Of a stretch of 64,000 nucleotides of DNA, positions 2,585 to 57,741 are shown piece after piece (position 1 is the first letter of the stretch; the number at the start of each line of letters is the position of its first letter). The position numbers and the translations under genes are program-made. Source of the DNA: Folioceros fuciformis (Eukaryota); NCBI GenBank assembly GCA_049999805.1, contig JBNGIO010006303.1:139775-203774 (forward strand), written 5' to 3'. The notes below the pieces were generated by a model. That model was given only the letters and a program-made list of their open reading frames with translations, did not search any database and was not told where the DNA came from.

Positions 2585-5500
2585 ATGGCCAATCCAAACC
2601 CTGTTGGCACAGTCAACAACACCACCATCAACAATTTGAAGATCGACTTCAAGGAGAGAGACGGATTCTCTGGATCCCAGTTTGACATCTGGGCCGTGCG
2701 AGTCAAGACAATTCTTCAAGAGAATGGTTTGTGGGATGTTGTGACGGGCACCACCCCAAAGCCTGCAGTTGCAGTGACTGCACCAGTAGCTGATCAGGAG
2801 GCGTGGGCCATGAAGGACCTGCGTGCATTGGTGGTGATCCAGGCAGCCTTGGACAAGTCAATGATGCACTACACGCAGGATGTGGAAACCACAAAAGCAG
2901 CTTGGGATGCTCTCACTCAATCCTACCAAGTGGTGAATGGAGCAGCCAACCTAACGGCCACACGACAGTTTTACAATTGCAAGATGCGAGAATGTGACCC
3001 AATTGAGCAACATGTGAGCAAGTTCCAAACACTCCGTTCAAAGCTCACATCAAGTGGAACTCCCACAACGGAAATGCAAGCAGCCACAACCTTGCTTCTT
3101 TCCCTGCCTAACAGCTACCGGACCTTCGTGAGCAACCACAACACGAGGCTTTGCCAGATAGCTTAGGCCACACCTACAGGACAAGTACCAGCTGTGTCCC
3201 TTGCAGATCTAATCGGAGCTTTTCTCGAGGAAGAGTCCTCCAGACAAGCAAACTGAAGTGGACTCTCCCACAAGGGAGAAGCCTCAAACAGAGTACTCTA
3301 CACAAACAAGGGTACTCGACGGCCTCCACCTTGTCAAACCTAGCAAAGGGACATCAGCAAAAGTAAGAAGCCTGCAGCAAGGACGGGAACCAAGAAGAAA
3401 GGACCGTGCAATTGGTGTTTGATACCTAGACACTGGGAGGCAGACTGTCGGAAGAAGAAGGCGGGTGAACCTCGTCAGGTAGCACCTCCAGAATCAAATG
3501 TGGCTCATCGCAAGGTGAACATGTTGCTAGCCGTCTACATGGTAGCAACCCCTCAATACAGGCATTCCTGGTACGTAGACTCTAGAGCTTCCTCACATGT
3601 CTGTCATACTTTCAAAGCCTTTTCAGAGTATAGGAAGATGCCACGAGGTCAAGTCGTGTTGCTTGGAGATGACCGTGGTCTCCCCATAGCTGGCATAGGC
3701 AAGGTCCCTGTACAGCTCATGAATGGCACCTCAATAGGCCTTATTGATGTTTTACACGTCCCAGCAATGGTTAGGAACCTAGTGTCTGTACATTTGCTAG
3801 ACACCCAGCACATCATGTTTGCTGGAGGGGAGTGTAAGGTGCTAGACCCCTCATTAAAGGGCAAGGTCGTCATTCGAGGCACACCTGTCTATAACCTGTA
3901 CAAATTAGACATCACATACAAGTTAGGTGTTCAAGTTGGAACACATATAGCTAATCTAAGTCAGGAGAAGCTAGCTGAGAGAGAGACCCTGTTGTGGCAC
4001 TATCGGCTTGGACATGCCAACTTTGACAAGCTGAAGTCTATGATAGCGAGCAACACTCTACAAGGAAAAATTCATGATGAGGTTTGTGGACAAATAGTTC
4101 TGCGACGCCTGCATGTTTGGGAAGCAGCATCGCCAACCCTACACTGACAAGAACCCAACAAGGGCCACATAGCTGTTAGAGTTGGTGCATACTAACATTT
4201 GTGGCCCCATGTCAATAGCAACTTTCGGGGGAGCCAAATACATGTTGCTGTTCATAGATAATTGGAGTAGGTACACAATGATCTACCTAATCAAGCAAAA
4301 GAGTGATGCTCTAGGGTGCTTCTAGGACTACGTTACCTTTGCTCAAAGGCAAACTGGTAAGCTTCTGAAGACGTTGCGGAGTGACAATGGTGGGGAATTT
4401 TGCTCAAATGCCTTCAATGACTACTACAGCAGTCTCGAGATTGCCAGGCAGCTGACCACACCCTACACTTCGGCACAAAACCCAATTGCGGAGCTCAGCA
4501 ACAGGCACGTTCAGGAGTCCGCTAAATGAATGATGAAGGTGGTAGGCCTATCCAGAGGCTACTGGGGAGAGGCTGCAGCAACAGCAGTGTACCTCCGAAA
4601 CTGTCTACCCACAAAGGCCTTCACTGGAGCTACACCTTTCGAGCGGTGGACATCTTACAAGCCTCGAATCTCACATCTTCGAATATTTGGTGCACCTGCG
4701 TATGCGCACTTATCCGAAGACCAGAGGGTGAAGCTAGATTACAAGGCTCGTAAGTATGTCTTCATGGGGTATACAGAAGGCATAAAAGGGTACAAACTCT
4801 TTGACCCCATCACTCGCACCACAACCCACTGCCATAGTGTTACCTTTCACGAGCAGCTGTTGCTAGCCCCACCTGAGCTTATTCCAGTAGACACAGCGTC
4901 CTCTAGCTACACAGCATCTGAACCACTAGATGAAATTGAACAGGGCACCTTCCAGTCCCTTAGCTTGCCACCTACACCTGTACCTTCACCTCCTGCTACC
5001 GATCCAGAGGAGGAACCAAGCTCATTCCTATCTAACGATGAGGATGAAGCCCCAAAAGCTAAAGAACCTGAACTCGAAGAGCAGGAACCTGAACAGGAGG
5101 TCCCTACACAAAGCCAGCAGCCACCTGAGCCTTCAGCTCCATAGCTTCGAAGGAGCACAAGGAGACACCTCCTCTCCATGTGAGTGGGTAAATCCACCCT
5201 TGAATGCTTCCTCTTTCTTGGTGCAAGAGGATGTTGATCTAGAAGACTTGGATGAGCCACTCTCTTACAAGGAAGCTATTAGCTCGCCCAAAGCAGCAAA
5301 GTGGATTGAGGGCATCAATTCCGAGTACAAGTCCCTCGTAGACAATGGAACATGGGAGCTTGTGGACTTACCAGCAGACGGAAAACCAGTCACATGCAAA
5401 GGGTCTTCAAGAAGAAGCTAAACGCTGATGGAAGTGTCTCTCGTTACAAAGCAAGACAGGTTGCTAGAGGGTATAGCCAAGTGGAAGGCTTGGACTACAC

Positions 5501-6836
5501 CGAAACATTCTCTCTAGTGGGACGTTCCACATCCGTATGGTCCCTGTTTGCTATAACAGCACAACATGATTATGCAATGGAGCATATGGATGTGAAATTT
5601 GCTTTTCTCAATGGTACCTTGAAGGAGACCATCTACATGCGTCAACCGGAGGGCTTCGAAGCCCCTAAACACCCAAACAAAGTGTGTAAGCTCATCAAAA
5701 CTATATATGGGCTTAAGCAATCACCTCGAGCATGGTACAATAGAATAGATACTTATCTAAGGAAGTCAGGAGTCGTGCAAAGCGAGGCTGATTCCAATGT
5801 GTACCTACTGCGAGAGCAAGAGGGTGTAGTGTTTCTTGCCCTCTATGTGGATGATGCAGTGTTGATTGCTAGCAGTCCCAAGCTTATGTCAAAGGTCAAG
5901 GAAATACTTACCTCAGAATTTTCAATGACTGACCCAAGCAAGCTCACATGGTTCTTGGGCATTCAAATAGTCCAGGATCTGAATACACACACTGTGGCAA
6001 TCCATCAAGCACAGCATATTAGTCACATTCTAGCTAGATTTAGAATGGTTGACTGCAAACCTGCACCAACACCAATGGCTGCAGGGGAGAAACTTAGCTT
6101 AGAGCAATCTCCAAAAACAGAGGAAGAAAGGATGCAAATGGACAAAGGCCCCTATAGATCAGCTGTTTGCACTTTAATCTACTGTAGAAATTGGACCCTA
6201 CCAGACTTGTCACATGTAGTGGGAGTCACTTCTCAATTCTTGACATGCTATGGAGCACCCCACTGGACAGCTGTGCAGCGGATTATGCGGTATCTAAAGG
6301 GTACCCCTAGACTTAGACTAATCTATAAGAAGAGGCCAGAAGCACTCACACTTACCTGCTTCTATGATGCTGATTGGGCTTCGGACTCGGACACCCGCAA
6401 GTCAGTTTCAACAAACTGCTTCCTTCTGGGCTCCAATGAGTATGATTCAAATGTCATCTCTTGGTACAGTAAGAAACAACAAGTTGTTGCATTGTCCTCA
6501 ACCGAGGCTGAATATGCAGCAACCGCAACAGCAGCACAGAACATTGTGCAAGTCAGGGAGTTCCTTGCATCACTAGGAGAAGAGCAAGCTGCACCCACAT
6601 TGCTGCTATGTGATAATCAATCAGCTATAGCACTTGCTCATAACCCCATAATGCACGCTAGAACCAAGCACATAGAAATAAAGCATCATTTTATAAGGCA
6701 GGTCATACTTAATGCACAGGCAAACCTGCAGTATGTCCCCACAAATCAGAATGTTGCAGATGTCCTCACTAAAGCCCTAGCTAAGGAAAGGCACTATAGA
6801 TTCTGCAAGGCTATGGGACTAGCAGAATGTCCCTAA
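2585..6836 (+). pseudogene. Copia gag-pol polyprotein of element A, broken by stops and frameshifts
   Basis: gag (FDIWAVRVKTILQENGLW), CNWC..HWEADC knuckle, WYVDS protease site, LWHYRLGH, integrase LRSDNGGEF, RT (YKARQVARG, MDVKFAFLNG, LYVDD), RNase H (DADWA, SSTEAEY, ARTKHIEIKHHFIR). Confidence 0.95.
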
Positions 6837-7062
6837 GTCCTACACCACCCATAGACAACAGAGTGCATGCAAAATTGTTCGTGTAGCTCCTTAAGGACTT
6901 GAGTCTTCACTTGAATCTTCGAGTGGGCATTGCCGTGGTGCATCTACACCAAGGCTCTACAAGGAATGGAGAACATTAGCTCATGGCAGCAAGGGAACAC
7001 AACAAGCAGTGGGAGCAATTCTCACCAACACCTAGCTTACCATAACGTATGATAAGGCGGCC

Positions 7063-7332
7063 CTAGTCTGTGAATTCTGAGCCTGCATACATGAATCTGT
7101 CCATACAGTTGGGGAGCATTCTGTAGGGCGCATCAGGCACAAGGCAAGGGAATCCCTGCAGCGACCCTAATCGAGCGTGAGCTGCCTCCAATTCTGCTTC
7201 AGCAAAACAAAACTTGGCAAGTTCTGCACTCAGTGAATGTGGCCTTTGGCACATGCTCAGTACTAGCGCAAGCACAATACCGATGGCTACACCAAGCAGC
7301 GCAACAATCAAGCTCATAGTTGTGCAATCCAT
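7063..7332 (-). CDS. Antisense small ORF (89 aa from ATG 7332) with hydrophobic N-terminus in the 3' region of element A; the stop is probably premature
   Basis: Homologous to 46487-46804 (ELEAA...VPxAPxRxLPxCxDxFxYAGxEFT). Similarity continues past the TAG (GRLIIRYGK vs GRQFIKYSK). Confidence 0.75.
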   Translation of the reverse strand: MDCTTMSLIVALLGVAIGIVLALVLSMCQRPHSLSAELAKFCFAEAELEAAHARLGSLQGFPCLVPDAPYRMLPNCMDRFMYAGSEFTD

Positions 7333-7417
7333 GAAAGCTGAGCAGCCACATGAAGACCCAAGCGGGAAGATTGAGGATTCAAATGCACAAAATCTACTAA
7401 GTCTGTCTAAGTGGGAG

Positions 7418-7560
7418 TATAGAAATATAAAATTAGGAGTCAATTTTATATTAAATAGCCAGCCTTAGGTTTATTTATTAAATTAGGCAAAAACGTTAAA
7501 GGTATGAAATAGTATGCCTTTTCATACTGTCGTGATCGAACCCTAAGCGACGTGTACACT
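7418..7560 (+). repeat. Partial 3' LTR of element A, starting 5'-TATAG (end approximate)
   Basis: Directly follows the PPT. Shares tttattta..aattaggcaaaaacgtta and gtcgtga blocks with the LTR of element B. Confidence 0.7.
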
Positions 7561-7842: not shown

Positions 7843-9535
7843 TTGATGTCAATGAGGGATTACGTCTTCAACTTCCCTGTGACCCCCCACTTATGTCGTA
7901 GACTAGACACAGAATATGAAGGTATAATCCCCCCTCCACTGAGTCCTTCTTCTAGTCCAGCACCACCTAATACACCTGTTCCACCACCTGTTCCACCACC
8001 TGTTCCACCACCTGTTCCACCTCCTGTGCCTCCCCCTAACCCACCTATACCACCAGTCCAACCTGTCAACATGTCTGCTGCTGGATCAACATCTACATTC
8101 ATAGCAGAGTTGAAAGAAAAGAACAGGTTTAATGGTTCTCGGTATGGAGTGTGGCGTGTTCAGATGATATCAAACCTGTACGCATGAGGAGTATGGGGAG
8201 TAGTGGACGGCAACACTCCAACGCCAGTCTTACCTGCTGCAGGAGCTGCAAGCTCCTCTATTACAACTCCAGTCACACAAGCAGATGTGGATAAATGGAA
8301 CAACCTTAAGAGTGTAGCTGTTGCCATTTTGATTTCTGGACTTGATGAAGTCCTTATTCCTGATGTGGAGTACTTGACCATGGCACATGAAATTTGGAGT
8401 CAGCTTGAAGGCACATATGCTGTCAAGACTATGTTGACCCTATGTGCTGCAAAGCAAGAGTTCTATGCCCTAAGGATGCGAGAAGGAGAGAGTGTGGGTG
8501 TCCACACCAGCAAATTTCGTCACCTTCCACCGCGCCTTAAATAGATGAGCTGCACCATGACTGAAGAGGATGTAGTTGCACAACTATTGCTCAACTTGTC
8601 TGCCTCGTATCAAACATTTGTCTCACTCCAAAATGGCCCTTTATCTACAGCTGGTCAAAGTAGATAAGCAGGTGCACAAGTCAATCTTACTTTGGAGAGT
8701 GTGATTGCTGCACTTTATCAGGAAGAGCATAGCTGACTTCGACACAACTCAGGTGGCTCTGGCAAGATTCGAACAGACAAAGTCCTGTACACCTCACGTC
8801 AGCGCGAAGGCTATGGGAGAGGGCGTGGTAGAGGAGGAAGTAGATTTTCCTCATGTGGTCGACAACAACAGCAAACCTCCACTGGTGGTCCATCTTTGAC
8901 TTCAATGAAGAAACCTGGTAACTGTAACTGGTGCAACACTCCTAGACATTGGGAGAGGGATTGGCATAAAAAGAAGGTTGGAGAACCCCGTCAACCTAAG
9001 CCAAAGGTTCATTCTGTCACCAAAGAGAAAACTTCAAATGAAGGAGGCAAGACTGTAGTTAAAATCTTTACCATCTGTCTCTCTTCATCACCAAGCAACC
9101 CTAGGAGCTAGTATCTCGATTTTGGCGCCACCGTGCATATTTGCAAGGATAAATGACTGTTCAGCAGTTACAAGGAGATTCACTACTCAAATCAGTTTGT
9201 CCTACTTGGAGACGAGAAGAAATCAACCTGTCTCCCTATAATAGGATATGGTACTTGCCATTTTCTCATGACTGATAATTCAATTCTGCATGTCCCATGG
9301 ATACTCCATGTGCCCGATATGGCGAAGAACCTTCTGTCTATCAGGCTTTTGGCCATTCACCACAAACTGGAGTTTCGCTTCTTTGGCTTCACTTGTGAAG
9401 TGTTCAGACGTGCCTCTAGCTCTTGTATCGGCATAGGCATTCCAAATGATGACTTATATCGCTTGGACGTCATATGTGAAGTGTTCTCTAACCCGATTGC
9501 CACATCAGCTACTCATGTTGCTCACCTTCCACCAA
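7843..9535 (+). mobile_element. Degenerate copia gag-protease fragment related to elements A and B, with a 12-bp PPPV-coding repeat at ~7975-8035
   Basis: RFNGSRYGVWRVQM, FYALRMREGESV, CNWCNTPRHWERD.HKKKVGEPRQ, LHVPDMAKNLLSI; several stops; ends abruptly in a repeat tract. Confidence 0.88.
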
Positions 9536-9539
9536 GCGC

Positions 9540-11310
9540 TCGATTCGGTTTTCTGAGCATCCTTATCCTTGGTTCTCCTGTGTTGGCGTCCTTGGCCTCG
9601 GTTCTCTTATCTTGTCGTCCCTATCCTCGATTCTCTTGTGTCGTCGTCCCTATCCTTGATTCTCTTCTCTTATTGTCCCTATCCTCGGTTCTGTTGTGTT
9701 GTCATCCCTATCCTCGGTTCTCTTGTTTTGTTGTCCCTATTCTTGGTTCTCTTCTCTTTTCGTCCCTATCCTCGGTTCTCTTCTCCTGTTGTCCCTGTCC
9801 TCAGTTCTCTTCTCTTGGCAACCCAAGACTTCTCTTGTTTGGGAGTTCATGTCTTCGATTCTCTTGTCTTGATGTCCCTTTTTTCAATTCTCAAGAGTCC
9901 TTGTCCTCGATTCTTTTGTCTTGGTGTCCCCTTCCTCGATTCTCTTGTCTTGGATTCCTTATCCTTGGTTCTCTTGTCTTGTTGTCCCTATCCTCAGTTC
10001 TATCGCCTTGGCATCCTAGAACTTTTCTTTTCTTGGCATCCCTGTCCTCAGTTCTCTTGTGTTGGCGTCCCTATCCTTGGTTGTCTTATGTGAGGACTTC
10101 TCTTGTCTGGGAGTCCCTGTGCTTAGTTCTCTTGTGTTGGTGTATCTTTCCTCGGTTCTCTTCTGTTAGCATCCTAAGGATGCTAACCCAAACGTTAGAA
10201 CAAGGCTTGTTCTCGGTTCTCTTGTGTTGGTGTCTCTTTCCACGGCTCTATTGTGTTTGTGTCCCTGTCCTCAGTTCTCTTCTATTGGCATCTCTTTCCT
10301 GGGTTCTATTGTCCTCATGTCCCAAGACTTCTCTTGTGTTGGCATCCATATCCTTGATTCTATTGTGTTAGGACTTCTCTTGTTTGGGAGTCCCTCTTCC
10401 TCGGTTGTCTTGTCCTAGTGTGCCTTTCCTTGATTCTTTTGTCTTGGCTTCCATGTCCTTATTTTTCTTGTCTTGTCGTCTCTATCCTCGCTTCTATTGC
10501 CTAGGCGTCCTTAGTCTTTTCTTGTCTAGGCGTCCTTGTCCTTAGCTCTATTCCCCTCGTGTCCTAGGACTTTTCTTGTCTCGTCGTTCAATGACTTCTC
10601 TTGCGTTAGTGTCCCCATCCTCGGTTTTCTTGTGTTAGTATCCTTGTTCTCGGTTCTCTTGTGTTGGCGTCCTTGTCCTCGGTTCGCTTGTGTTGGCGTC
10701 TCTTTCCTTGGTTCTCTTGTGTTGGTGTCCCTAGCCTAAGTTCTCTTGTCTTGGTGTCTCTTTCCTCGGTTCTATTGTCTTGGCATCCCAAGACTTCTCT
10801 TGTCTTGGCGTCCATTTCCTCGATTCTCTTGTGTCAGGACTTCTCTTGTTTAGGAGTTGCTGTTCCTCGAGTTCTATTGTCATGGCGTCCCATAACTTCT
10901 CTTGTGTTGGTGTCCCCATCCTTGGTTCTCTTGTGTTATTGTCCCTGTACTCAGTTGTCTTATGTAGTGTCCCAATCCTCGCTTCTGTTGTCTAGGCATC
11001 TCTCTTCTCGGTTCTCTTGTGTTGGTATCCTTGTCCTCGATTCTCCTATGTTGGTGTTCCTATCTTATTTTCTTTGTCTTGGAATCTCAGCATCTCGTGA
11101 CTTTTCTTGTCTCGGCGTCCCAGGACTCCCCATGCCCCGGCATCTTGTCTTGCCATCTCTTTTCTCAGTTCTCTTGTCTTTGCATCCCTTTTTTTTGGTT
11201 CTCTTGTGTGAGGACTTCCCTTGCCTAGGAGTCCTTGTCCTCGGTTCTCTTGTCTTAGGGTCCCTTTCCTTGATTCTTTTGTTTTGGGTTCCTTATCCTT
11301 GGTTCTCTTA
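9540..11310. repeat. Degenerate T/C-rich tandem array, unit about 30 bp (approx. CTCGGTTCTCTTGTGTTGGCGTCCCTATC)
   Basis: Dozens of variant copies of TTCTCTTGT(G/C)TTGG.GTCC with strong strand bias. Confidence 0.9.
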
Positions 11311-11967
11311 TGCAGATGTAATCGCCAAGGCTGCCACTCTTCTTCCCATTTCCCGCGAAGATCGGATCCTATCAGTGTTCAGAGCTCGCCAGCAAATTCA
11401 TGCTACAAGTCTACAGGAGTGGCGTTTACGATGGGTTTCCTCAACTAAGGCTTTTGCGTTTAAGAGGGTGGTGCTTGGTGGCCCTTCGGCCTCGTTGCTG
11501 CAACGCCTTGGTCTCCATGACCATAAGCTCTCATCATTTCTCACCCAGCTTCGGACTGGGCATATGGCTATTGGGGCTTACTTTTGGAGATTCAACATTG
11601 CAGAGGATCCATTTTGTCGGAAATGCTGGTCTTCAGAAGAAACTCGTCACCACATCCTTGGCCAGTGTATGGCCACTCGCAACACTTGGATCCAGATGTT
11701 TCAAGGCTCTTACTATGATATCCGGCAACTTCTTAGTGTTCCCAAACTCAGGGAAAAACTTCTCTTACTTCAAGGCGATTGGCGATTACTTAACTTGGGC
11801 TTATTGACATAGCTATCTAGATTTGCTATTTTGTTAGCTCTAATCCTCTTTCTTTTGCGCTTTCCCAAAGTGTCCATTCAACCAAAGTGTCCATTCAATC
11901 ATGTTTTGATTCACGGCATCATAGCCTTACGGCTGCATACGCATAATGATAAATAAATAAATAAATA
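11310..11967 (+). mobile_element. 3' end of a non-LTR retrotransposon (LINE): end of RNase H, zinc knuckle, 3' UTR and (TAAA)n tail
   Basis: ADVIAKAA, then QLRTGH...CRKCWSSEETRHHILGQC, stop at 11812, and (TAAA)4 at 11950-11965. Confidence 0.82.
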
Positions 11968-40140: not shown

Positions 40141-42026
40141 ATACCGTATGTGCGTTTCTCCCAACATTGAGATGGGATCTACTCCTAAAAGTGTAGAATT
40201 GTCACCGGGTATAGGGGCAGATTGATACATTTCTTCATTTTTGTTCAGAACTGCTTTGGTGAATAATTCGACATTTAAGAACCTTGAATCTAGTTTCACG
40301 GAATATCCAATATGATTAGGGTGTAGAGAAAAGATCTTATACCCGAGTAGTGAAGTGAATGTGGACAATGTGATGTGCAAGCTGTGGATCGCTGTACAGC
40401 CTTCGTTTTTTAGTACACTAACCTTGGGTTGGAAGTCTAGACCCTTGAGTTGTGCAAGCTCCTGTACTAGATCGCTGAACGTGCCAGTAGCTACCAGCCT
40501 TTCTATGTCATTACTTTATTTGGCCACGCCTAGCACCTCTTCACCTAAGAGGAGCATTTTCCTTGGGAGGAGCATTGGAACTCTGGCCCCTAATGACAAG
40601 GCAGTGGAGCTGCAGCCGCTAATGCCACCCCTGGATACGATGGAGAGCATGTTATCTATAAATTGTCCCGAGACAGTGCAACCTTTCCTCTGCGGAAAAG
40701 AGAGAGGGCAAATCCATATGTCAAGACAACCGTTGCTTTGGCACAAAAAATGTGTGTATAGCTAACCCCGTTGAATCAATTTAGTTNNNNNNNNNNNNNN
40801 NNNNNNNNNNNNNNNNNNNNNNNNNNNNNNNNNNNNNNNNNNNNNNNNNNNNNNNNNNNNNNNNNNNNNNNNNNNNNNNNNNNNNNNNNNNNNNNNNNNN
40901 NNNNNNNNNNNNNNNNNNNNNNNNNNNNNNNNNNNNNNNNNNNNNNNNNNNNNNNNNNNNNNNNNNNNNNNNNNNNNNNNNNNNNNNNNNNNNNNNNNNN
41001 NNNNNNNNNNNNNNNNNNNNNNNNNNNNNNNNNNNNNNNNNNNNNNNNNNNNNNNNNNNNNNNNNNNNNNNNNNNNNNNNNNNNNNNNNNNNNNNNNNNN
41101 NNNNNNNNNNNNNNNNNNNNNNNNNNNNNNNNNNNNNNNNNNNNNNNNNNNNNNNNNNNNNNNNNNNNNNNNNNNNNNNNNNNNNNACATTGACCTGACT
41201 AGTCTTACTGCGTGGTAACAAAGTTGCGGCCTTCAAGATGACGGAAAAGCAATGGTTAATGCCTTAGTCCACGTAAGCCTTGATGCATACAATAAAGGTG
41301 ATCACCACCTAATTTAGGTGAAGCAAATAACAACTATCTTTAAAGTTCAAGGTAAGCAACCACTTTTAAATTTGAGTGTTGGGTGATTTGCTACTAGAAA
41401 AAGAAGATAGTAGCTACCTAGCAATAACTATTCAACAATGAAATGGGGATGTGATAGAATATCTAAGGAATGTAAGGGATATATTGTCATATTCTCATAT
41501 TGGCTACTTGGGAAAACCATACGTTGGCATGTGGTCACTTCAATGGCTATGTGAAACGTGAACAAAGTTGAAGTGGCAATAACGCCTAAGAAAGATGGAA
41601 GAGGAAGGGTCGTAGAANNNNNNNNNNNNNNNNNNNNNNNNNNNNNNNNNNNNNNNNNNNNNNNNNNNNNNNNNNNNNNNNNNNNNNNNNNNNNNNNNNN
41701 NNNNNNNNNNNNNNNNNATGCAATACAGGAGGATGGGGGTGCAAAACGATGCCACATCATCTTATGAGGCACTAAGGACGAGGTTTTGCAGAAGAATGCA
41801 TTTAGCAATGTGATAAGGGTTTTTTTATTTTTGGCTTCTTCCGTGAATAGTACAACAAATAAATAATTTTTGCCCTACCCTCTCCTTACTTAACATAGAA
41901 TACTAGATTAGTGCTATTCATACCAACCTGTTATAGAAAGGATTTTAATAGAATTCAAATTAATAATTACAAATTTGATTTTAAAACACATATATAATAA
42001 AATTCTAATCTTGGAGATACATGAAA

Positions 42027-42465
42027 GATAATTTATAATTTGAGTTATTTACCAATTCTTAATTTAAGTCCAGCATGTCACGTTTAAATACCATATGATA
42101 ATATTTTAATATTAGAGAGATAACATACAATTTGAGCCACTTACCAATTCTTATTTTAAACCTAATGTGTCATGTATAAATACCATACAATAAAATTTTA
42201 ATATGGGAAAAGATAACTTATAATTTGAGTTACTTACTAAGTTTTAATTTAAGCTTAATATGTTATATCTAAATACCATATGATAAAAAAAATTAATTGT
42301 GGAGATAACTTATAATCTAAGATACTTACTCATTCTTAATTTAAACTTAATGTGTGATGTATAAATTCCATATGACAAAATTCTAATTTTGGAAAACATA
42401 ACTTCTAATTTAAACTACTTACTAATTCTTAATTTAAGTCCAGTGTGTGATGTATAAATACCATG
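42027..42465. repeat. AT-rich tandem repeat, 92-93-bp unit, about 5 copies
   Basis: Units start at about 42027, 42119, 42212, 42304 and 42397 (gataacttataatttgagttacttaccaattcttaatttaa...taaataccata). Confidence 0.9.
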
Positions 42466-42662
42466 TGTATCACTCACAAATTCACTATGGAGAAGAAGAA
42501 GTGAGTAGAGACATCTTAAAAGGATGTCATTGTGAGCAGGTTAGACTATGATATATTGTTTTGAATTTCAATACAAAACTTGGGGGCAGAGAAAAAGAGT
42601 AGGGAGAATTCCTTAGTACTATTTAAAATCAAGGATTGATTCTATAGATCTTTTCTAGTATT

Positions 42663-44024
42663 ATGGCGTTATACAAGGAGGCTTCCATAAAAATCTCAAG
42701 AAAATGGGGAAAGTTGATGGGAATTCAACGACAACTTTGGAATTTAATTTATAATTTTATGAGTTATAATTTTATGCACTTAATCTATGTCTCGCTTTTC
42801 TTGTGCTTAGTTATGTTCACTTTTATTATTGAACATGATATCAATACTTTAAAAAGTAATGAAGCCATTGATCCTACTCAAAAGCTTCTTCCCGATAAGC
42901 AACATATTCCATATGTAGGGAGGTTGCCACATATGCAAATATTTTATCCACCAGCTCTTGAACCAAAGTTGTCAATTGTATCGACAACAGCAGCAAGTTT
43001 AGATGTATTGTTGCCTTGGATCTTTTACCATAAGGCAATTGGTGTAAGCAATTTCTATTTGTTTGTTGAAGGAAATACGGCATCAGAAAAGAGTATAATT
43101 CTATTACAAAATATACCAGGTGTGAAGGCAATAAAGCGCGACAAGAAGTTAGAACGGAAACAAAAAGAAAGTCGAATATGGAATGAGACTTGGCTCTCTC
43201 CTTTCTTACACAAGCCTTGCAATTATGAGTTATTTGTGAAGCAAACCTTTAATATGGAGATGGGAATTGTGTTGGCCAAGGAGGCTGGAATGGATTGGAT
43301 TATGCATCTAGATAGCGATGAATTGATATACCCAATAGATTCACCGGATAATAGAATTACAACCATATTGGCTAGAGTTCCTTCAAATGTCGAACAAGTT
43401 ATTTTCCACAATGAAGAAGCTGCTATAGAGAGAGATAATATTACAGACTCTTTTATTGAGGTCACCTTGTTCAAAAGGAATAAAGCGATGATGCCATCAG
43501 ATAGCTATCGTAAATTTCGATCTGCGACCTCTAAACACAGGTATTATTTCCTAACATATATAAATGGTAAGGCCGCAGCTCGAATTCAAAGTCACTTGCG
43601 CCCTAATGGGGCTCATAGGTGGGCTAGTTACTCAAGATCTTCTATCCTAAAGAGTCAGTACTTAGAAGAGTCAATTGTTTTGCACTACTCTTATACCAAA
43701 TTTTCAGATCTAATTACTAGAAAGAATCGTTGTCATTGTAAACTCGATTTGAAGACTTTGAAGAGATGTATCATGCTTCCATTTGATCGCGAGGCTTATG
43801 TCATTGCTGGCTCAAATGTCACAGAAGCCCAAATACGAACATGGTACCAATCAAATGTGGTGTGGTCAACAAGAGAAGATGTGCTTGAATTGTTGAAGTT
43901 GGGAATAATGCATCGGATCAATAGTCCACAAATAATTATTCAAGGTTTAAAGGAAGCTGGGGTGTTTAGAGATGCCATAGAAAGGGGTTCTCAAAACACC
44001 AAAGTCGAGAAGCTACATATGTAG
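42663..44024 (+). CDS. KOB1: KOBITO1/ELD1/ABI8-like glycosyltransferase-like type II membrane protein, intronless, 453 aa
   Basis: N-terminal TM helix; LPWIFYHKAIGVSNFYLFVEG, SRIWNETWL, KPCNYELFVKQ, NMEMGIVLAKEAGMDWIMHLDSDELIYP, FLTYINGKAAARIQSHLRPNGAHRW. A divergent homologue, not necessarily the orthologue. Confidence 0.92.
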   Translation: MALYKEASIKISRKWGKLMGIQRQLWNLIYNFMSYNFMHLIYVSLFLCLVMFTFIIEHDINTLKSNEAIDPTQKLLPDKQHIPYVGRLPHMQIFYPPALEPKLSIVSTTAASLDVLLPWIFYHKAIGVSNFYLFVEGNTASEKSIILLQNIPGVKAIKRDKKLERKQKESRIWNETWLSPFLHKPCNYELFVKQTFNMEMGIVLAKEAGMDWIMHLDSDELIYPIDSPDNRITTILARVPSNVEQVIFHNEEAAIERDNITDSFIEVTLFKRNKAMMPSDSYRKFRSATSKHRYYFLTYINGKAAARIQSHLRPNGAHRWASYSRSSILKSQYLEESIVLHYSYTKFSDLITRKNRCHCKLDLKTLKRCIMLPFDREAYVIAGSNVTEAQIRTWYQSNVVWSTREDVLELLKLGIMHRINSPQIIIQGLKEAGVFRDAIERGSQNTKVEKLHM

Positions 44025-45832: not shown

Positions 45833-46100
45833 AAGAGATAATGTTATGACCAAGTGATTTGTGGGTATTTATGCATCGAGTTTCATGTAGTATCATAGTT
45901 GGGAGCCCTCCATCTGGCTCTTTGAGTATTTGGCAGTAGCATTATGTCAATCATAGCAACCCAGTGATTGGGGGAGTTGATTTGGGTGCTGGCCAGGTGG
46001 CACTTAGATAAGACCCCTACACTGTAGACAGGCTCTCAGACATTCAAAGGTACTGACTTCTTCAAACATGCACCCTTTGTATGTGGACATCGATTGTCCA

Positions 46101-46416
46101 TAAAGAACTAGTTGTAGGATTGACAGATGCTGAGAATCAAGAAGGCACAAGAGAAAAAAAACTGATTAATTATTATCAGGACCGTATGGCCTTATAAAGG
46201 GCAGAGGCCAAGGCACAAGAAAAAAAAAGTGATTAATTATTATCAGGACCGTATGGCCTTATAAAGGGCAGAGGCCTCGGTTTGTGGTGCCCCTAAAATG
46301 TGTCGTTCTGATTCAGGTCACGACCTTACGTTGCACCCCTAATAATCTAGCGTTTTGCTTAATTAAATAAAGGATGATTAATAATTACTGGATAAATAAT
46401 CCTAACTCTATCTATA
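46101..46416 (-). repeat. 3' LTR of element B (316 bp, with a ~67-bp internal tandem duplication)
   Basis: Matches 52037-52285; aaggcacaag...aagggcagaggcc is present twice. Confidence 0.95.
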
Positions 46417-46486
46417 CTCCCTTTTAGCCAAGATTTATTCCAAGAGTTGTTGCAGTACACATTGTACTTGCGACAGAATTTCTCCG

Positions 46487-46804
46487 ATGGCGGAGTTGCT
46501 GGAGATTGTGTTGATGTTGGCCATCCTTGCGATGTTGATGCGATGCTGTCATGTTTTCCAGCTCTATAATGGATTCTCCAAGCTGCTGACGTTGGAGAAC
46601 GAGCTGGAGGCAGCTCAACCAAAAAAATGTGTTCCAGGTGCTCCATTCCGCTTTCTTCCATACTGTCTTGACAAGTTCGTGTACGCTGGCTGCGAATTCA
46701 CCAAGGATGGTAGGCAGTTCATAAAATATAGTAAGTTTGTTGTGAGATTACTCCCAATGCTTGCCTTGTTCCGTGGTGTGCAGCTGACCAGTTGTGTTGC
46801 TTGA
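46487..46804 (+). CDS. Antisense small ORF (105 aa, hydrophobic N-terminus) in the 3' region of element B
   Basis: Intact ATG to TGA; homologous to 7063-7332(-) with many synonymous codon differences. Confidence 0.8.
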   Translation: MAELLEIVLMLAILAMLMRCCHVFQLYNGFSKLLTLENELEAAQPKKCVPGAPFRFLPYCLDKFVYAGCEFTKDGRQFIKYSKFVVRLLPMLALFRGVQLTSCVA

Positions 46805-46905
46805 CGCAGAACCTTGGTGGCAGTGCACCTCCAAGATGCCGATCAGGCAATTTCAAGCTCCTGTCTGCAATGTTAGATTTCCAAGCTAGATGGTAGGTGC
46901 TAGGA

Positions 46906-49900
46906 CTAAGCATCTGGATTCTTCACTAATCCCATGGCGGCTGAGAGTTTCTCATGCTTCTCCCAAGGTAGTGCTTTAGTGAGCATGTCATCTAGGTTCT
47001 CATGAGTAGAGACATATTGGAGAGTGTCTTGTCCCTCTGCAATGACCTGCCTCATGAAACGATGCTTAATTTCTATGTGCTTTGTGCGAGCATGCAGCAT
47101 TGGGCTTTGTGATAGGGCTATGGCTGACTGATTGTCACTTAGGAGGACTGTTGGTTGTGTCTAGGGTTCTCCAAGAGATGCCATTAGTTCCCTTCCATGA
47201 ATTATGTCATGTGCTGCTGTTGTGGTTGCAATGTACTCCGCTTCCGTGGAGGACAAAGCCACCACCTGTTGCTTCTTTGAATGCCATGCTATGATTGTAG
47301 AATCTCCTGCATCCCTTCCTAGCATTAGGCAATGAGCAGAGATTGACTTCCTACTATCTATATTCGCTGCCCAGTCAGCATCACAGTAGTAGGTTAGTAG
47401 CAGGCTCTTCGGTCTTTGCTTGTATAGCAGTCCAAGGTTGGATGTGCCCACCAGGTATTGGAAGATCTATTGGACAACATTCCAATGAGCAGTACCATAG
47501 TTGGAGAGAAACTGTGAGGTCACTCCCACTGAATGTGCAAGATCGGGTCTGGTCCAGTTCCTGAAGTAGATGCAAACTCCCACTGCAGGCCTGTATGGCA
47601 CCTTCTCCATCTCAAGTCTTTCGGCTTACGTCTTAGGACATTGTTCTAGAGTCAACTTCTCACCTGCCACCATTGGTGTTGATGCAGGCTTGGCATCCTG
47701 GAGCCTAAAACGTGCAAGCACTTGTGCTACAAACTGTGCTTGGTGTATGAAGATGATGTGCCTAGACAAGTTCTGGTGGATGTGGATTCCAAGAAAGAAT
47801 GCTAATTGACCAAGGTCTGTCATGGAGAACTCGGCTGTGAGGAATCCTTTTACTTTTGCCATATGTTGCGGGCTACTTGCTATGATAATTGCATCATCTA
47901 CGTACAGGGCAAGGTAGACAACGCCATTGCTATCATGCAACTTCTAGACATTGGAGTCTGCTTGACTTTGCTCAAATCCACACTTTTTCAGGTATGTATC
48001 TATCCTTTTATACCACGCTTGTGGTGACTGCTTGAGTCCATAGATAGTTTTCACTAATCTACATACCTTTTGTGGATGCGCAGGGTCTACATGGCCTTCT
48101 GGTTGCTTCATGAAGATTGTCTCTTTTAGATTTCCATTGAGGAAAGCAGTCTTTACATCCATGTGCTGAAGCATATAGTCATGTTGAGCTGCAATTGCTA
48201 GAAGAGCTCGAATTGAAGTAGCACGTACCACAGGTGAGAAGGTCTATGTGTAGTCAAGACCTTCCACCTGACTGTAGCCACGAGCAACCAGTCTAGCTTT
48301 AAATCTGCCAATAGTACCATCCGCTCCCAATTTTCAGTATTGTCTTGGACTGAAACTTCTTGTGTTGTTTCTCCATCAAGGGTTTCATCATCTGGAAAAT
48401 CAGATGGCTTCTCATTGAAGTCAATCTCTACAGGTTGTGTAGACTGAGTAGGGTTTAGGGTTGAAACACTTGTGTGTTGAGAGGAAGTGGACTCTAGTAG
48501 GGATACTTCAGAGTCTTGACCGTTTTCAGATATCTGCTGAATAACTTGGTCTAGCAAACCTCAACTTGTGGATGGATTGAGCAAAAGCTGCTCGTTGAAG
48601 ATGACACTGCGTGCATGGATGGTAGACCGGGTGTTTGGGTCAAAAAGCTTGTAACCCTTAATCCCTTCTATGTATCCTACAAAGACATACTTCTTGGCTT
48701 TGTAATCTAACTTGACACGTTGTTTTCCACTCAGGTGTGCATAGGCTAGGGAACCAAAGATCCTCAAATAATTTATGCGGGGTCTATGACTGGTCCAACG
48801 TTGAAAAGGAGTGGCTCCAGCATAAGCAGAGGTAGGGACTCTATTCTTGATGTAGACAGCAGTAGCAATTACTTATCCCCAATAGGATCTTGGTAACCCT
48901 GCAAGTTTTAGCATCGCCTTGGCTTGTTCCTGCAAATGCTTGTTGGTTAGCTCAACCAAAGGGTTCTACGAGGAAGTGTATGGCACTGTAAATTGTCGTG
49001 CTATTCCCTGGTCCTCGCAGTAAGCCTTAAACTCGTTGGAGGTATACTCCCCTCCATTGTCACTGCGTAGAGCCTTGAGTTGCTCCCCAGTTTGACGCTG
49101 AGCAAAAGTGACGAACTCCTGGAAGCAGCCAAGGGTCTCACTCTTTTGTTTGATCAAGTAGATTATGGTGTACCTGCTCCAGTCATCTATGAAAGAAAGG
49201 AAGTACATGGATCCACCAAGAGAAGGGGTGGACATGGGTCCACAAAGATCCAAATGCACAAGCTCCAGAAGTTTAGTGGCTCTGGTGGGGTTTTTATCCT
49301 TGTAGGGAAGGCAGTGGTGCTTCCCGAAGATGCATGCTTCATTGTTGGTTGCAGGATTGAAGCATGAAGTTTTCCTGATACAGGGAGTTGCTAGCCACCA
49401 TACTCTTGAGCTTGTCAAAGTTCACATGCCCTAGCTGGCAATGCCACAACATAGTCTCCTCCTTCTTCTTAATGTCTTGGGTGACATTGACATGTGCAGT
49501 GGAGGGTTTTTGACTAAGCTTTGATGTGATGTTCAAGTGGTACAGGTCATGAAGAGGTGTGCCCTTAGCTAAGACCTTGTTCTTATACAGTGGATCAGTG
49601 ATGACCCAGTGAAGGCCAAAGAAGGATACCTCTAAGACATTTTGTGTTGTAAGCTTACAAACATAAACAAGGTTCTTCTTCATTGAAGGGACATGTAGTA
49701 CATCTAACAAGTGAAGGGTCATTCTGTCTGATAGAAGGACAGGCACTGTGCCTATGCCCTCTATGTGCAGCCCACTGTCATCGCCTAGTAAGACAAATTG
49801 ACCATGTGAAACTGTCCTATACTCAAAGAAGGAATTCTTGGAATGGCAAATATGTGCAAATGCACCTGAATCTATAAACCAGGCGTGTTTGTGTGACACT

Positions 49901-51808: not shown

Positions 51809-52036
51809 CTACTTCTTGGTCTCGGCATAGCGCTGTATGATCATGTGTAGTAATGCTCTATAGCAGCGGCGAGGAATACATCTGCCATGCTACCAAAACG
51901 GGTGAGGGCTGCTTTGAGACCAGAAACTACTACTATGAATTTATCATAGAAGAGATTGTTAATGAAATTCGTGCTCTGGGAGGCCTCACAAATTTCTGGT
52001 GGCACGGCAGGATCCATTATGCTAGCTTTGATACCA

Positions 52037-52285
52037 TAAAGAACTAGTTGTAGGATCGACAGATGTTGAGAATCAAGAAGGCACAAGAGAAAAAAAACTA
52101 ATTAATTATTGTTAGGGCCATATGGCCTTATAAAGGGTAGAGGCCTCGGTTTGTGGTGCCCCTAAAATGTGTCGTTTTGATTCAGGTCACGACCTTACGT
52201 CGCACCCCTAATAATTTAGCGTTTCGCTTAATTAAATAAAGTCTGATTAATAAATACTGGATAAATAATCCTAGCTCTATCTATA
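52037..52285 (-). repeat. 5' LTR of element B (249 bp)
   Basis: Minus strand reads TATAGATAG...GTTCTTTA, immediately followed by the PBS. Confidence 0.95.
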
Positions 52286-52648
52286 GTCCAGCAGGGTTTG
52301 TTGATAGGAGGTCTTGTTGTGTTCGGACATTCCCACAAAATAGCCCTCATCTACAAGTAGGTTGAAGGTATGTAACACCTTCGTGGATGGTCCAACTAGT
52401 GGGTCTATTTTCGGTCCTGGTGGGAAGTTACAAAGTTGCCCGACTCTCCATCACTAACGTCGATGACAACGCTAGAGAAAAGTGTGTGGTAGACCATGTT
52501 TTGCCTCTGTTCTCCAATCCTCTCAGCATATACATGGATGTGGAGCCCATTAGTGTGTGCGGTAGACCATGTTTTGCCTCCGTTCTTCAATCCTCTCAGC
52601 ATATACATGGATGTGGAGCCCATTAGAGTGTGCGGTAGACCATGTTTT

Positions 52649-55600
52649 TGTAGGGTTATTAAAGCCCAATGTGCTTAGACTAATGTGTTTAGTCTAAGAT
52701 TAGTGTCTGGTTAAGTATCATTAGCTTAGATTAGCTTAAGCTAATCTATAGGAAGCGTCTTGCGCAGCTTGCTTCCTATGCGCTTCTTGTGAAGCTTTCT
52801 AGGGAGCTCTTCTAGAGGGTATAAATACCCCCTTGAGCTCCTTTGCATATTGAGACCTTTTGTGAGAGTGTAACCTCTCTTTCTCCTCTCCTCCTTGCCT
52901 CCTCTTGTCCTCTCTTTCACCATGCTCTTCTAGCGATCCTTCAAGTGGTATCTGAGCTTGGTTGTGGAGCTTGGATTGTGGAGCAAGGATGATAGGCTCG
53001 GGTTGCTGCGGAAAAGGTGCACAAGTGGGCTTCGGAGTGAGCACGCTGCTGGGTGCAAGGATCTCAGCGTAGAGAAGGAGCCGAAGCCGGGGACCCGGAC
53101 ATGAACACAGAGGGCGCAAGGGCACCAGCTCTGCGCGCGGGGATGAGCAGGCCCCAGCCCCCGGGGCTACGCAGACGCCGAGAGCAAGGGTGTGCACGCC
53201 GAACTAACCCCGACCGCGGAAGTCAGGATCCCGATCAGACGCCGAGAGCAAGGGTGTGCGCGCCGAACTAACCCCGACCGCAGAAGTCAGGATCCCGATC
53301 AGACGACGAGAGACATTCCAGTTGTGAGCGACCAAGGCCCAAGTTGTGGAAGTTTGATTCGGAACATGTTGTGAGGGTAACTTTTAGAATCTACATTGCA
53401 TTCCGACTGTTTTCTATCTAGCCTTTAGCTTCATTTGCATCGATTTTGAAACATGGCATCCTCAGAAAATGTCATGTTCAATATCGAGAAGTTAGATGGT
53501 ACTAACTTCCCGTTCTGGAAAGAACAAGTGTATAATGTTCTAGTACAAAAGAAGCAGATCAAGCTCATAAAGCTGCTAGGAGTGAAACCCGTTAGCATGA
53601 CTCAAGATGAGTGGCAGGACCTAGATGAGCTTGCTAGGTCTACCATCATGCTAACATTGTCGAAGTCGGTCTACTTCAACGTGAAACTAGCTAACGTCCA
53701 CAAGGTACGAGCTATGGCAAAAGTTGTGTGACTTGTACGAGAAGCAAAGTGCGGCTTCTTAGGTGTATTGGTTGAAACGACTGGTGGACTTGAAGATGAA
53801 GGAAGGGACGAGGATGTCTGATCATCTGAATGAGTTTAATGCCATTTTCAGCCAGCTCTCATCTCAAGGTATCTCGTTCCCAGATTCCAAGAGAGGTATG
53901 TTTCTGTTGCTCACATTACTAGAGAGCTGAGACACCTTTCGTACAGCTTTGAGTAATTCCGCTCCTGCCAATGGTCTTACTGTTGTAAATGTAGAAGGTA
54001 GCTTGATAACAAAGGAGATGAACAGGAAGAATATGGAACCTTCGAAAGGTTCCAATGCCCTCATGGTGAGAGGAAGGTCCACTTCAAAGGGGAAGGACAA
54101 GGAGTGAAGTCGTTCCCGTAGTAAGTCTCGTAGTCGTAACAATGTTGAGTGTTACCATTGTCACAAGAAGGGACACATCAGAAGGGACTGCGAGAAGTTC
54201 AAGAAGGACAAAGGCAAAGAGAAGAAGCAGAGCGACAACAAGGCAAGTCTGAGTGTCAAGTGTGACGAGGTGAACTCTGTTGATGATGGAGATGTTCTTA
54301 CTTCTTCTTCCTTTGATTCTGCACAACTAACAGCCGTAGAGAGTCACTTATTCTCTAATTGGATAATTGACTTTGGAGCATCTTTCCATGTTACTCCGCA
54401 TAGGGAGTGGTTTAGCACATATGATGCTACCAGGAAAGGATGTGTTCGGCTTGGAAATAACTACGCATGCGAGATTGCAGGCGTTGGTGATGTGTAGCTG
54501 AAGTTCGACAATGGATCTTCATTCGTACTGAAGGATGTTAGGCATGTTCCGAAGTTGACCAAAAGCATGATTAGCGCAGGGCAGTTGGATGACGCTGGCT
54601 ACCACTGTTTGTTTGGAGATCGTTCTTGGAAGATCTCCAAAGGTTCTCTTGTGTTAGCTCGTGGATCGAAGTGTAGCACTTTGTACTCACTTCAGGTAAC
54701 CACTGTCCAGGATCATGTGATTTGTGTAACGGAACAGCCAAGTGTTTCCTTGTGGCGTAGTCGGTTAGGACATATGTCTCAAAAGGGACTGAAGATCCTA
54801 TCTCGTTTTGGTTACGTCCCTGCTTTTGACTTCTCCGATTTCTCCGTGTGTGAGCACTGTTTGTATGGGAAATAGACGAAGTCACCACATGGAGCAAGAG
54901 GTAAACACAGAAGTAAACCTCTTGAGTTGGTTCACAGTAACGTTTGTGGACTTATGCCCACAGTATCGTTAGGCGGTGCATCCTATTTTGTCACTTTCAT
55001 TGATGACTTCTCGTGCAAGGTGTGGGTTTATCCTTTGAGGAAACAGGATGATGTTCTGACAGTGTTTTAGAAATTCGTCACACTTGTGGAGAATCAGTCT
55101 GGCCTTCGGCTAAAGTGTCTGAGGACAGACAATGGGGGAGAGTATGTCTCGATGGCTTTCCAGTCATTCTGTGATTCCAAGGGAATCAAGAGAGAACTGA
55201 CTGCGCCGTATACTCCTCCCGAGAATGGTGTGGCCGAACGGATGAACAGGATCATCCAGGAGAAGATGCGTAGTTTGTTGTCAAACTTTGGATTGCCTAA
55301 CGGATTTTGGGGAGAAGCAGTGGTTATTGTGGTGCATCTTGTTAACAGATCTCCTAATAGGATTGTGGATAAGCAAGTTCCAGAAGAGATGTGGTCTGGG
55401 AAGAAGCCGTCTTACAAGCATCTACAAGTGTTTGGCTGTGAGGCATACTACCATGTTCTGAAGGAGTTTTAGGACAAGTTGGCTCCTAAGTCAAGAAAAT
55501 GTATTTTTCTTGGCTATGGTGAATTTGGTGAGATGGGATACTGTCTGTGGGATCTAGAGGCCAAGAGGATGGTTCGCAGCAATGATGTGTTCTTCAATGA

Positions 55601-57741
55601 GACCAAGATGCACAAGAAGCCTACTCCAACAGTGGAGGTGCGACGAGTGGTCTTTCAAGAAGATGGATTTAACCGTCTCGCACAGGTTGAACGTTGTGAT
55701 GTGCAGGAATAAGTGCCTCCACTTGTACAAGAGGAGAAAGTGCAACCAGCTCTGGTCGAGGCGCTAGTGCTTCGTAGGTCAGGAAGGATCTCACGTCCTC
55801 CTGACAGGTATGTTGCATCTCTTGATTATGTCATGCTGACGGATTGTGGGGAGCCCTGTTATTACCAAGAGGCCATGTCAGTGACTGACAAGGACAAGTG
55901 GGAGAAGGCGATGCAGTCGCAGATGGATTCGCTCCACAAGAACCAAACTTGAGAGTTGGTTCCGTTGCCTAAGGGCAAGAAGGCGTTGCCATGCAAATGG
56001 GTGTATAAGATGAAGGACATACCCCATTATGGCAAACCCAAGTGTAAGACACAATTGGTTGCTAAAGGTTTTAAGCAACAGCAAGGTATTGACTTTGATG
56101 AGATTTTCTCGCCAGTTGTCAAAATGACCACCTTGCGATGTGTCCTTGGTCTGGTTGCGAGGCACGACATGGAACTTATCCAGATGGATGTGAAGTCAGC
56201 ATTTCTGCATGGTGATCTCCAGGAAGAGGTATACATGCAGCAATCAGAGGGTTTCATTGAGAAGGGCAAAGAAAGTCTAGTGTGCAGGTTAAAGAAGAGC
56301 CTTTATGGTTTGAAGCAGGCACCCAGGGAGTGGTATTTCAAATTCCACTCGTTTACGCTTTCTCAAGGCTACAAACGTAGCGATGAGGATCATTGCCTCT
56401 ATACGAAGCAAGCTAAGGATGGAAGCTTGCTCATTCTAGTTCTATATGAGGATGATATGCTAATTGCTGGGCGTAACAGTGATGAGATTTCAGCGTTGAA
56501 GTCAAAGTTGAATGGTCGCTTTAACATGACAGACTTGGGAGAGGCAAGCCATATTCTTGGCATGCGTATTCGTCGAGACAGACAGAAGCATTTGCTTTAC
56601 TTGTCTCAGAATGAATACATTAACAAGATGCTTCAACGTTTCAATATGGAGAAGGGGAAGGTATTGAGTACTTCGTTGCCTCCATATGTAAAGCTTTCGA
56701 GCAAAGATTGCCCAAGCTCTGCGGAAGACAAAGCTGAAATGGAGAAGGTTCCATACTCATCAGCTGTGGGGAGTTTGATGTATGCAATGATTGCCACGCG
56801 TCCTGACATTGCGTTTGCAATGGGAGTGGTTAGCAGGTTTATGTCAAACCCTGGCAGCAAGCATTGGGAGGCAGTGAAAGGAGTTATGAGGTACTTGAAT
56901 GGTACAAAAGCTTTGTGCATATGTTTTGGTAGTGAAGATGCATCTGTCGTGGGATATATGGATGCTGATTATGTAGGGGATATGGACAAAAGGAGGTCCA
57001 CATCCGGTTATGTCTTCATGTGCACCGGAGGGACAGTCTCATGGCAATCGCGTTTGCAATCGTGCATAACGCTATCTACCACAAAGGCCGAGTATGTTGC
57101 AGCGACTGAGGCATGCAAGGAAGCCATGTGGCTTGCTCGTTTAGTGGGAGATTTGAGGATCAAGGTTGAGCTGCCAGTGTTGCATTGTGATAGCCAGAGT
57201 GCTATCCAATTGGCGAAGAATCCAGTGTTTCATGCGAAGACCAAACATGTGGAAGTGAAGTATCACTTCATTCGAGAGGTGTTGGAAGACAAGAGGGTAC
57301 AACTTGTCAAAGTTCACACCAGTCAGAATCCTACAGATGTTCTTACCAAGGGGCTCTCTTCGGAGCAATTCGCACAAGCTCGGACACTCATGGGCATGAG
57401 GTAGACCACTCTCCTATGAAGGTAAATTGGCCTTTAAGGGGGAGGTTGTAGGGTTATTAAAGCCCAATGTGCTTAGACTAATGTGTTTAGTCTAAGATTA
57501 GTGTCTGGTTAAGTATCATTAGCTTAGATTAGCTTAAGCTAATCTATAGGAAGCTTCTTGCACAGCTTGCTTCCTATGCGCTTCTTGTGAAGCTTCCCAG
57601 AGAGCTCTTCTAGAGGGTATAAATACCCCCTTAAGCACCCTTGCATATTGAGATCTTTTATGAGAGTGTGACCTCTCTTTCTCCTCTCCTCCTTGCCTCC
57701 TCTTCTCCTCTCCTTCACTATGCTCCTCTAGCGATCCTTCA
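52649..57741 (+). mobile_element. Full-length Ty1/copia element C with canonical TG..CA LTRs; 5-bp TSD GTTTT
   Basis: 295-bp LTRs at 52649-52943 and 57447-57741. PBS TGGTATCTGAGC at 52946-52957. PPT AAGGGGGAGG at 57436-57445. GTTTT at 52644-52648 and 57742-57746. A 64-bp leader duplication at 53172-53300. Confidence 0.98.
53453..57404 (+). pseudogene. Copia gag-pol of element C, with several stops and frameshifts
   Basis: IEKLDGTNFPFWK, CYHCHKKGHIRRDC, WIIDFGASFH, LRTDNGGEY, MDVKSAFLHG, LYEDD (catalytic motif altered), KTKHVEVKYHFIRE. Confidence 0.96.

Follow-up and report, generated by a model that had tools for sequence, protein, structure and literature searches.

A small gene lying antisense between pol and the 3' LTR of Ty1/copia elements, under selection at the protein level, is regarded as a real accessory gene of one copia clade. 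The antisense open reading frame (ORF) occurs in two families of the window (the whole stretch of 64 kb that was analysed), in elements called A and B here, and in fragments attributed to a third family in DNA contigs of the same organism. Since the divergence of A and B, the frame has been maintained by purifying selection as strongly as the RT-RNase H of the same elements. On balance, we favour the explanation that the selected accessory gene of this Ty1/copia clade would be transcribed from the 3' LTR and spliced, and that its product would be membrane-anchored.

The antisense ORF and its host elements

Element B is a Ty1/copia insertion on the minus strand and is complete: its two LTRs are flanked by a target-site duplication, and both a primer-binding site (PBS) and a polypurine tract (PPT) are present. 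Its features are listed in Table 1 together with those of element A. The PBS is one which we take to be of the initiator-methionine tRNA type. The pol of B is decayed, with 5 in-frame stops in the 473-residue match to RT-RNase H. The 3' LTR of B contains a 68-nt tandem duplication (46142-46209 repeated as 46210-46276), which the 5' LTR does not have. In one DNA contig from this organism, 25 other letters stand in place of 46158-46254; thus, it probably comes from another copy of the LTR.

Element A lies on the plus strand, with the gag start at 2585 and a gag-pol which is broken into several ORFs. Neither an LTR pair nor a 5' LTR or a PBS of A was found within the 64-kb window; hence, its 3' LTR was placed by homology with the LTR end and the PPT of B. 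The first ~130 nt after A's PPT and the inner end of B's LTR are identical in 82 of 137 alignment columns, with an alignment score of 35 against 24.4 +/- 3.5 (maximum 39) in 200 shuffles. The PPTs of both elements can be aligned on a GGGAG core that is invariant. For an antisense promoter conserved in the LTR, the sequences give at most a weak hint. Both A and B have gag, integrase and RT-RNase H in the order of Ty1/copia, as determined by tblastn, and their RT-RNase H sequences share 63.6% identity over 473 aa. In homologues of A's RT, PF07727 is found, preceded by PF00665.

Table 1. Features of elements A and B and of the antisense gene. Positions refer to the window; introns and second exons are proposed, and helices are predicted.
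Feature	Position	Strand	Description
RT-RNase H ORF, element A	5352-6836	+	494 aa, intact
Proposed exon 2, A	6907-6956	-	stop codon 6907-6909
Proposed intron, A	6957-7040	-	84 nt; GTAAG donor, CTRAY-like match, pyrimidine tract, AG acceptor
Antisense gene exon 1, A	7041-7332	-	ATG 7332, helix, ELEAA, conserved block; in-frame stop 7063-7065
Polypurine tract, element A	7405-7417	+	LTR-like sequence begins at 7418
Target-site duplication, element B	46096-46100 and 52286-52290		same five bases at both outer LTR ends, read by hand
3' LTR, element B	46101-46417	-	317 nt; 92-93% identity to 52034-52289
Polypurine tract, element B	46418-46426	-	read as complement on the + strand; adjoins 3' LTR
Antisense ORF in B, unspliced	46487-46804	+	105 aa, ATG start
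Antisense gene exon 1, B	46487-46730	+	ATG, hydrophobic helix (residues 5-23), ELEAA, conserved block 46631-46729
Proposed intron, B	46731-46809	+	79 nt; GTAAG donor, pyrimidine-rich tract, AG acceptor (hand reading)
Proposed exon 2, B	46810-46889	+	stop codon 46887-46889, from translation
3' pol part (RT-RNase H), element B	46906-48333	-	last pol ORF ends at 46906
Primer-binding site, element B	52025-52036	-	exact match to PBS pattern
5' LTR, element B	52037-52285	-	from LTR-pair comparison

The antisense ORF had originally been predicted at 46487-46804 on the plus strand for B, with a counterpart at 7063-7332 on the minus strand for A, and both were recovered at these positions, the first ATG of A being at 7332. 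In B, the ORF occupies part of the interval from the LTR edge (46417) to the pol stop (46906) and runs opposite to gag-pol; A is the mirror image of this arrangement. Both start codons were said to be 70-90 bp inside the LTR edge. For B, this holds firmly, with a distance of 70 nt to an edge whose position follows from the LTR pair together with the target-site duplication and the PPT; for A, the distance of 86 nt is within the range but is counted from an edge (7418) placed by homology alone. The ORF of A has an out-of-frame ATG 20 nt upstream of its first ATG (7350-7352, minus strand; hand reading), which would open an overlapping upstream ORF. From the LTR edge of B to its start codon, no ATG is present.

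A BLASTP comparison of B with A gave 16 of 25 residues identical and 20 of 25 positive (E 7e-11 for this single comparison), in agreement with the 16 identical residues out of 24 reported before. Ten of these 16 are encoded by different codons, a count which was reproduced by hand reading, and the ELEAA motif and the hydrophobic N-terminus claimed for the two ORFs were found in both. A tblastn search with the B ORF against the six frames of the whole window retrieved the A locus with an e-value of 1.2e-11, whereas the next match had 0.087. In A, the ORF is ended inside the conserved block by the in-frame stop at 7063-7065, where B and the third family have a sense codon. Since the tblastn similarity between A and B runs through this stop and ~8 codons beyond, the in-frame stop of A is inside a block that continues in B.

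To search the same organism for further copies, DNA contigs from two runs were aligned to the region 45900-48400 at 80% likeness. Two non-DNA runs contributed 0 contigs to this region, and no RNA run was listed for the stretch. Extra contigs accumulate on 46572-46739, where their summed depth reaches up to 50 compared to ~10.6 for the contig of the window copy. One contig with a depth of 83 matches only 46639-46695 and then, after a stretch of undetermined sequence, the RT region. When the 30-letter loose ends of the extra contigs were translated by hand in the antisense frame, no stop was encountered in their 10 and 11 codons. Before the block, 7 of 10 residues are those of A (4 of them encoded by different codons), and after the block 7 of 11 residues equal A and 6 of 11 equal B. 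This evidence is partial, but it is independent of the two window copies, and it indicates that a third, higher-depth family also carries the antisense frame.

The window as a whole is eukaryotic and probably derived from a streptophyte plant, with a GC content of 0.47 and several runs of N, and contains several Ty1/copia elements; its other two copia families have only 37% identity to A. A different copia family is represented by three LTR copies with ~91% identity (1158-1420, 52648-52871 and 57405-57671) and by pol sequences at 261-1151 and 56046-57398. The LTR follows directly after pol in this unrelated family, so there is no room for an antisense ORF, and none was found for it in the window. 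Further observations in the window concern an extended tandem array of degenerate 29-nt units (9515-11335), which comes after the gag-integrase of a copia element at 8107-9528, and an intronless ORF of 453 aa (42663-44024) with weak matches to GT2/GT92 glycosyltransferases, whose nearest Atlas clusters are mostly streptophyte. Just upstream of the latter, at 42023-42482, five tandem repeat copies with a period of ~92 nt are found.

Selection on the antisense frame and a candidate intron

The comparison comprised the two full copies, A and B, and the fragments of the third family. As yardstick for protein selection, pol of A and B was compared over 468 codons. Synonymous sites are saturated in pol (pS 0.83), pN is 0.22, and mismatches at the three codon positions amount to 126, 84 and 291; of 289 identical residues, 180 (62%) are encoded by different codons. 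The conserved block of the antisense frame has nearly the same values, with pS 0.74-0.79 and pN 0.21-0.25, and the 3-nt periodicity to be expected of a coding sequence was recovered in its 33 codons, with 10, 6 and 20 mismatches at codon positions 1, 2 and 3. Identical residues encoded by different codons, counted by a script, are 12 of 20 in the block and 7 of 12 in the N-terminal part. When the same number of changes was placed randomly on the block of B, the identity of 20/33 residues was not reached in any of the 20000 trials. The purifying selection which had been proposed for this protein is supported, for the antisense frame, by both the pol-like pN/pS and the placement test.

Competing frames of the block were compared by their identity counts and stops. 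The other five frames have 9-18 identical residues of 37-38, and all of them contain stops. One sense frame has the same wobble position as the antisense frame; thus, periodicity alone cannot separate these two. This sense frame has 18 of 37 residues identical in the block, but it lacks a start codon, is interrupted 3 times by stops in A and is separated from pol by stops.

Directly after the last codon of the block, GTAAG is present in both copies. In both, a CTRAY match (46784-46788 in B) precedes a pyrimidine-rich tract and an AG by 20-22 nt, and the AG acceptors align. Splicing at these candidate sites would retain the frame in A and B despite the 5-nt difference in intron length. Stops in the relevant frames occur inside both proposed introns, whose T content is 0.35 (B) and 0.37 (A) compared to 0.20-0.30 in the flanking exons (0.26-0.30 in those of B). 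Without splicing, the sequences of A and B past the block require indels of lengths not divisible by three to be aligned, and conservation is back ~80 nt further on. There, in the proposed exon 2, 8 of 15 residues are identical between A and B, with 3 of 6 informative ones encoded by different codons; this identity was reached by random placement of changes in 28 of 20000 trials, for a frame which was chosen after seeing the data. In B, the proposed exon ends 17 nt short of the pol stop, which lies on the opposite strand. The data are no more than suggestive of a second exon behind a GT-AG intron of 79 or 84 nt, and we consider the chances that the proposed intron is real to be about even.

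The alternative that survives best assumes the same selected antisense gene, which would remain unspliced. The protein would end soon after the block, in B at 46804, and the distal conservation would reflect other functions, e.g., cis elements of the sense RNA. Indeed, the ORF of B is open to this position without splicing, and the score of exon 2 does not exceed that of the sense frame with the shared wobble position (8/15 vs. 8/16, the latter with one stop in B). A patch of 24 nt within the proposed intron (46749-46772 in B, 6994-7017 in A) is conserved at the nucleotide level: none of its 5 identical residues is encoded by different codons, which has a probability of 0.008 at the rate of pol. 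On the sense strand of the element, the patch is purine-rich and aligns with both 3' PPTs around their GGGAG core, and it could represent an additional PPT in the interior of the element. This PPT-like patch between the exons means that conserved non-coding elements exist in this stretch. However, the non-triplet indels past the donor imply that an unspliced C-terminus is not conserved, although the block just before it is. In each copy, moreover, the donor, the acceptor, the phase and the stops inside the interval are consistent with a GT-AG intron, despite lengths of 79 and 84 nt. An unspliced gene is considered rather unlikely.

Distinctly improbable is the assumption that no protein is made, that the ORF is incidental and that the conservation is due to a nucleic-acid function, be it that of a cis element acting in minus-strand DNA or in the genomic RNA, or that of an antisense regulatory RNA pairing with the sense transcript. 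Non-coding antisense RNAs are known in other retrotransposons, according to the text of PMC7264820. Furthermore, a run of 13 nt at the ELEAA region is identical in A and B, the patch conserved at the nucleotide level is close by, and neither a protein homologue nor RNA evidence for the stretch was found in the searches. On the other hand, the changes in the block are mainly at third positions, other codons are used for identical residues at the same rate as in pol, and random placement never reached the observed amino acid identity. Also, the antisense frame is open from the ATG in both copies over ~90 codons, through two eight-residue gaps of the protein alignment. An RNA structure as cause of the conservation was rejected: no stable or shared fold was predicted, the consensus fold being weak (-8.75 kcal/mol for 99 nt), and for the sense strand of B 196 of 200 shuffles have a fold that is equally stable or more stable. 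The Rfam search returned only a sub-threshold snoRNA match (18.5 bits vs. 40).

Finally, a captured host gene fragment drifting neutrally, or sense-strand coding such as an extension of pol, is highly improbable. According to the text of PMC7264820, LTR retrotransposons are able to capture genes; after such an event, an intron in antisense orientation would be retained, and one sense frame reaches the identity given above. However, the protein is retained while synonymous sites are saturated (pS 0.74-0.83), a divergence of A and B at which neutral sequence would no longer align, a host homologue was not found in any protein, Pfam or Atlas search, and sense coding or pol read-through is ruled out by the stops of that frame and its lack of a start codon.

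Predicted protein and proposed mode of action

The best 19-residue means of Kyte-Doolittle hydropathy are 2.08 for B (residues 5-23) and 2.99 for A (residues 8-26); the classical threshold for a membrane-spanning stretch is about 1.6. Among the 79 ATG-started ORFs of at least 80 aa in the window, 4 reach a value of 2.0 near their start, and the ORFs of B and A are assumed to be among these 4. Of the membrane anchor in the original prediction, an N-terminal helix is plausible in both proteins, judged from hydropathy alone. The residues ahead of the helix are acidic and those after it basic in both proteins, so that, following the positive-inside rule for membrane topology, the C-terminal part would face the cytosol. 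The conserved block, as read from the alignment, comes after the short ELEAA segment and displays a PxxPxR pattern and conserved cysteines. An AlphaFold2 model computed on the two-sequence alignment gave no usable fold (mean pLDDT 46.6, pTM 0.32).

No relative of the protein was found among 5.8 billion proteins nor among 1.84 billion representatives. Likewise, a word-indexed protein search with B, and with a profile of A and B at an e-value of up to 10, gave no match. The sole HMMER match of B in the 1.84 billion representatives, P0121 (E 2.8e-08, in 5 stretches), was discarded as spurious. This sequence of 1773 aa plainly consists of translated tandem repeats, and the representative library contains such artefacts. 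Pfam, searched with e-values up to 1, contains no family matching B, TRP28 (PF04195) included; A yielded a sub-threshold match to DUF1045 only (E 0.11, 12.9 bits vs. a cut-off of 24.3). The Protein Atlas gave no usable match (recognition 1740). A metagenome scan with the alignment produced 595 pattern matches, 0 of which were confirmed, and the 14 loci obtained with a degenerate pattern were all due to chance, as judged by the flanking translation. Since the conserved core is so short, the homology searches could detect only relatives closer than A is to B.

Under the favoured explanation, an antisense accessory gene which is spliced and encodes a membrane-anchored product, transcription would start within or beside that end of the 3' LTR which faces inward (U3), and the transcript would shed the GT-AG intron of 79 or 84 nt. 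As this would not be an intron in the sense RNA, it would survive retrotransposition. The product would be a protein of ~105-115 residues, with the N-terminal hydrophobic helix in the membrane and the conserved, cysteine-containing C-terminal part toward the cytosol. It might act on the element's own cycle, e.g., by tethering or regulating particle assembly at endomembranes; this mode of action is a guess, for which small membrane-anchored retroviral accessory proteins served as model. Evidence against the explanation is that both copies of the ORF reside in decayed elements, B with the stops in its pol and A without 5' LTR and PBS and with an in-frame stop in the ORF itself. Further points against it are the small number of copies compared, the lack of relatives in all searches and the weak similarity of the LTRs, which does not support a promoter.

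Relation to known systems

Antisense extra genes are a recognised yet unexplained feature of some plant Ty3/gypsy lineages. For plant Ty3/gypsy elements, the texts of PMC7264820, PMC11963269 and PMC4093653 report antisense ORFs, termed 'aORF-3R', in the interval from pol to the 3' LTR. The cases described there comprise gene23 of maize Grande, rice RIRE2, Silene Retand, ORFs with a TRP28 domain and ORF2 of bean, the latter in 15 families. The present ORF has the same position between pol and the 3' LTR, is likewise antisense and is conserved between the related families A and B, but its host is Ty1/copia instead of Ty3/gypsy. The bean ORF2s are given with 211-939 aa in the text of PMC4093653, compared to ~105 aa here, and the spacer from pol to the LTR in Retand is reported as 2.9-6.6 kb, compared to ~0.5 kb. 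Neither TRP28, which is found in Retand/Tat gypsy elements, nor an SMC domain was detected in the present ORF by Pfam. The protein of Grande is reported as nuclear, whereas the present ORF has a hydrophobic N-terminal helix. Because it has no TRP28 and only a fraction of the size of the gypsy examples, the protein is not assigned to any named protein family.

The aORF(-) of sunflower Athila 14 is an antisense ORF with one predicted transmembrane helix, as described in the text of PMC11728184. It is similar to the present case in being antisense, in belonging to a plant LTR retrotransposon and in encoding a predicted single-pass membrane protein. It differs in its lineage (gypsy/Athila) and in the position of its helix, which is in the middle of the protein; this comparison is one of descriptions, not of sequences. 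Within copia, elements of the SIRE type have envelope-like ORFs of 381-793 aa between pol and the 3' LTR in sense orientation (text of PMC4093653). These are likewise extra copia ORFs in the same place, but they are defined by their sense orientation, whereas the present ORF is antisense and has ~105 aa. According to the same text, 63 of 65 copia families of common bean have gag-pol only, and the other two have sense envelope-like ORFs. An antisense ORF in Ty1/copia is not described in the main texts of PMC7264820, PMC11963269, PMC4093653 and PMC11728184, supplementary lists aside, nor in the main texts of PMC2533021 and PMC6696364; a term search in the text of PMC6317226, its supplementary element list aside, gave no match for antisense ORFs. 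Literature searches likewise yielded no report of such an ORF in Ty1/copia.

Outside plants, HBZ and ASP embody the same idea, i.e., a minus-strand gene expressed from the 3' LTR, possibly spliced and possibly membrane-associated, which is proposed for the present case. HBZ of HTLV-1 has a spliced form, and ASP of HIV-1 is hydrophobic. Their hosts are animals, and no sequence similarity to the present ORF appeared in any search. Unlike HBZ and ASP, the present gene is located in a non-coding spacer, without overlap with env. Accessory proteins of the HIV-1 Vpu type have ~80-110 residues with an N-terminal hydrophobic helix and a short conserved cytosolic part; the present ORF resembles Vpu in build only, and there is no sequence relation. 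An antisense promoter in the 3' LTR of HTLV is cited in the text of PMC7264820.

The full proposal, according to which a copia clade possesses an ancestral, selected and spliced antisense gene, expressed from the 3' LTR, for a small membrane-anchored protein, is put forward tentatively. If true, it would be the first accessory gene of the antisense kind in the copia superfamily, and as a spliced antisense gene it would be the counterpart of HBZ and ASP in plant retrotransposons. Its intron would have persisted through many rounds of reverse transcription owing to the antisense orientation. ORF-length cut-offs of 300-600 nt, as stated in the texts of surveys, would miss genes this small. The small size, the predicted membrane anchor and the possible intron would make it a tractable case for the role of antisense genes. 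If the selection on this short gene is as strong as on reverse transcriptase, these copia elements would have a third protein which they require or benefit from.
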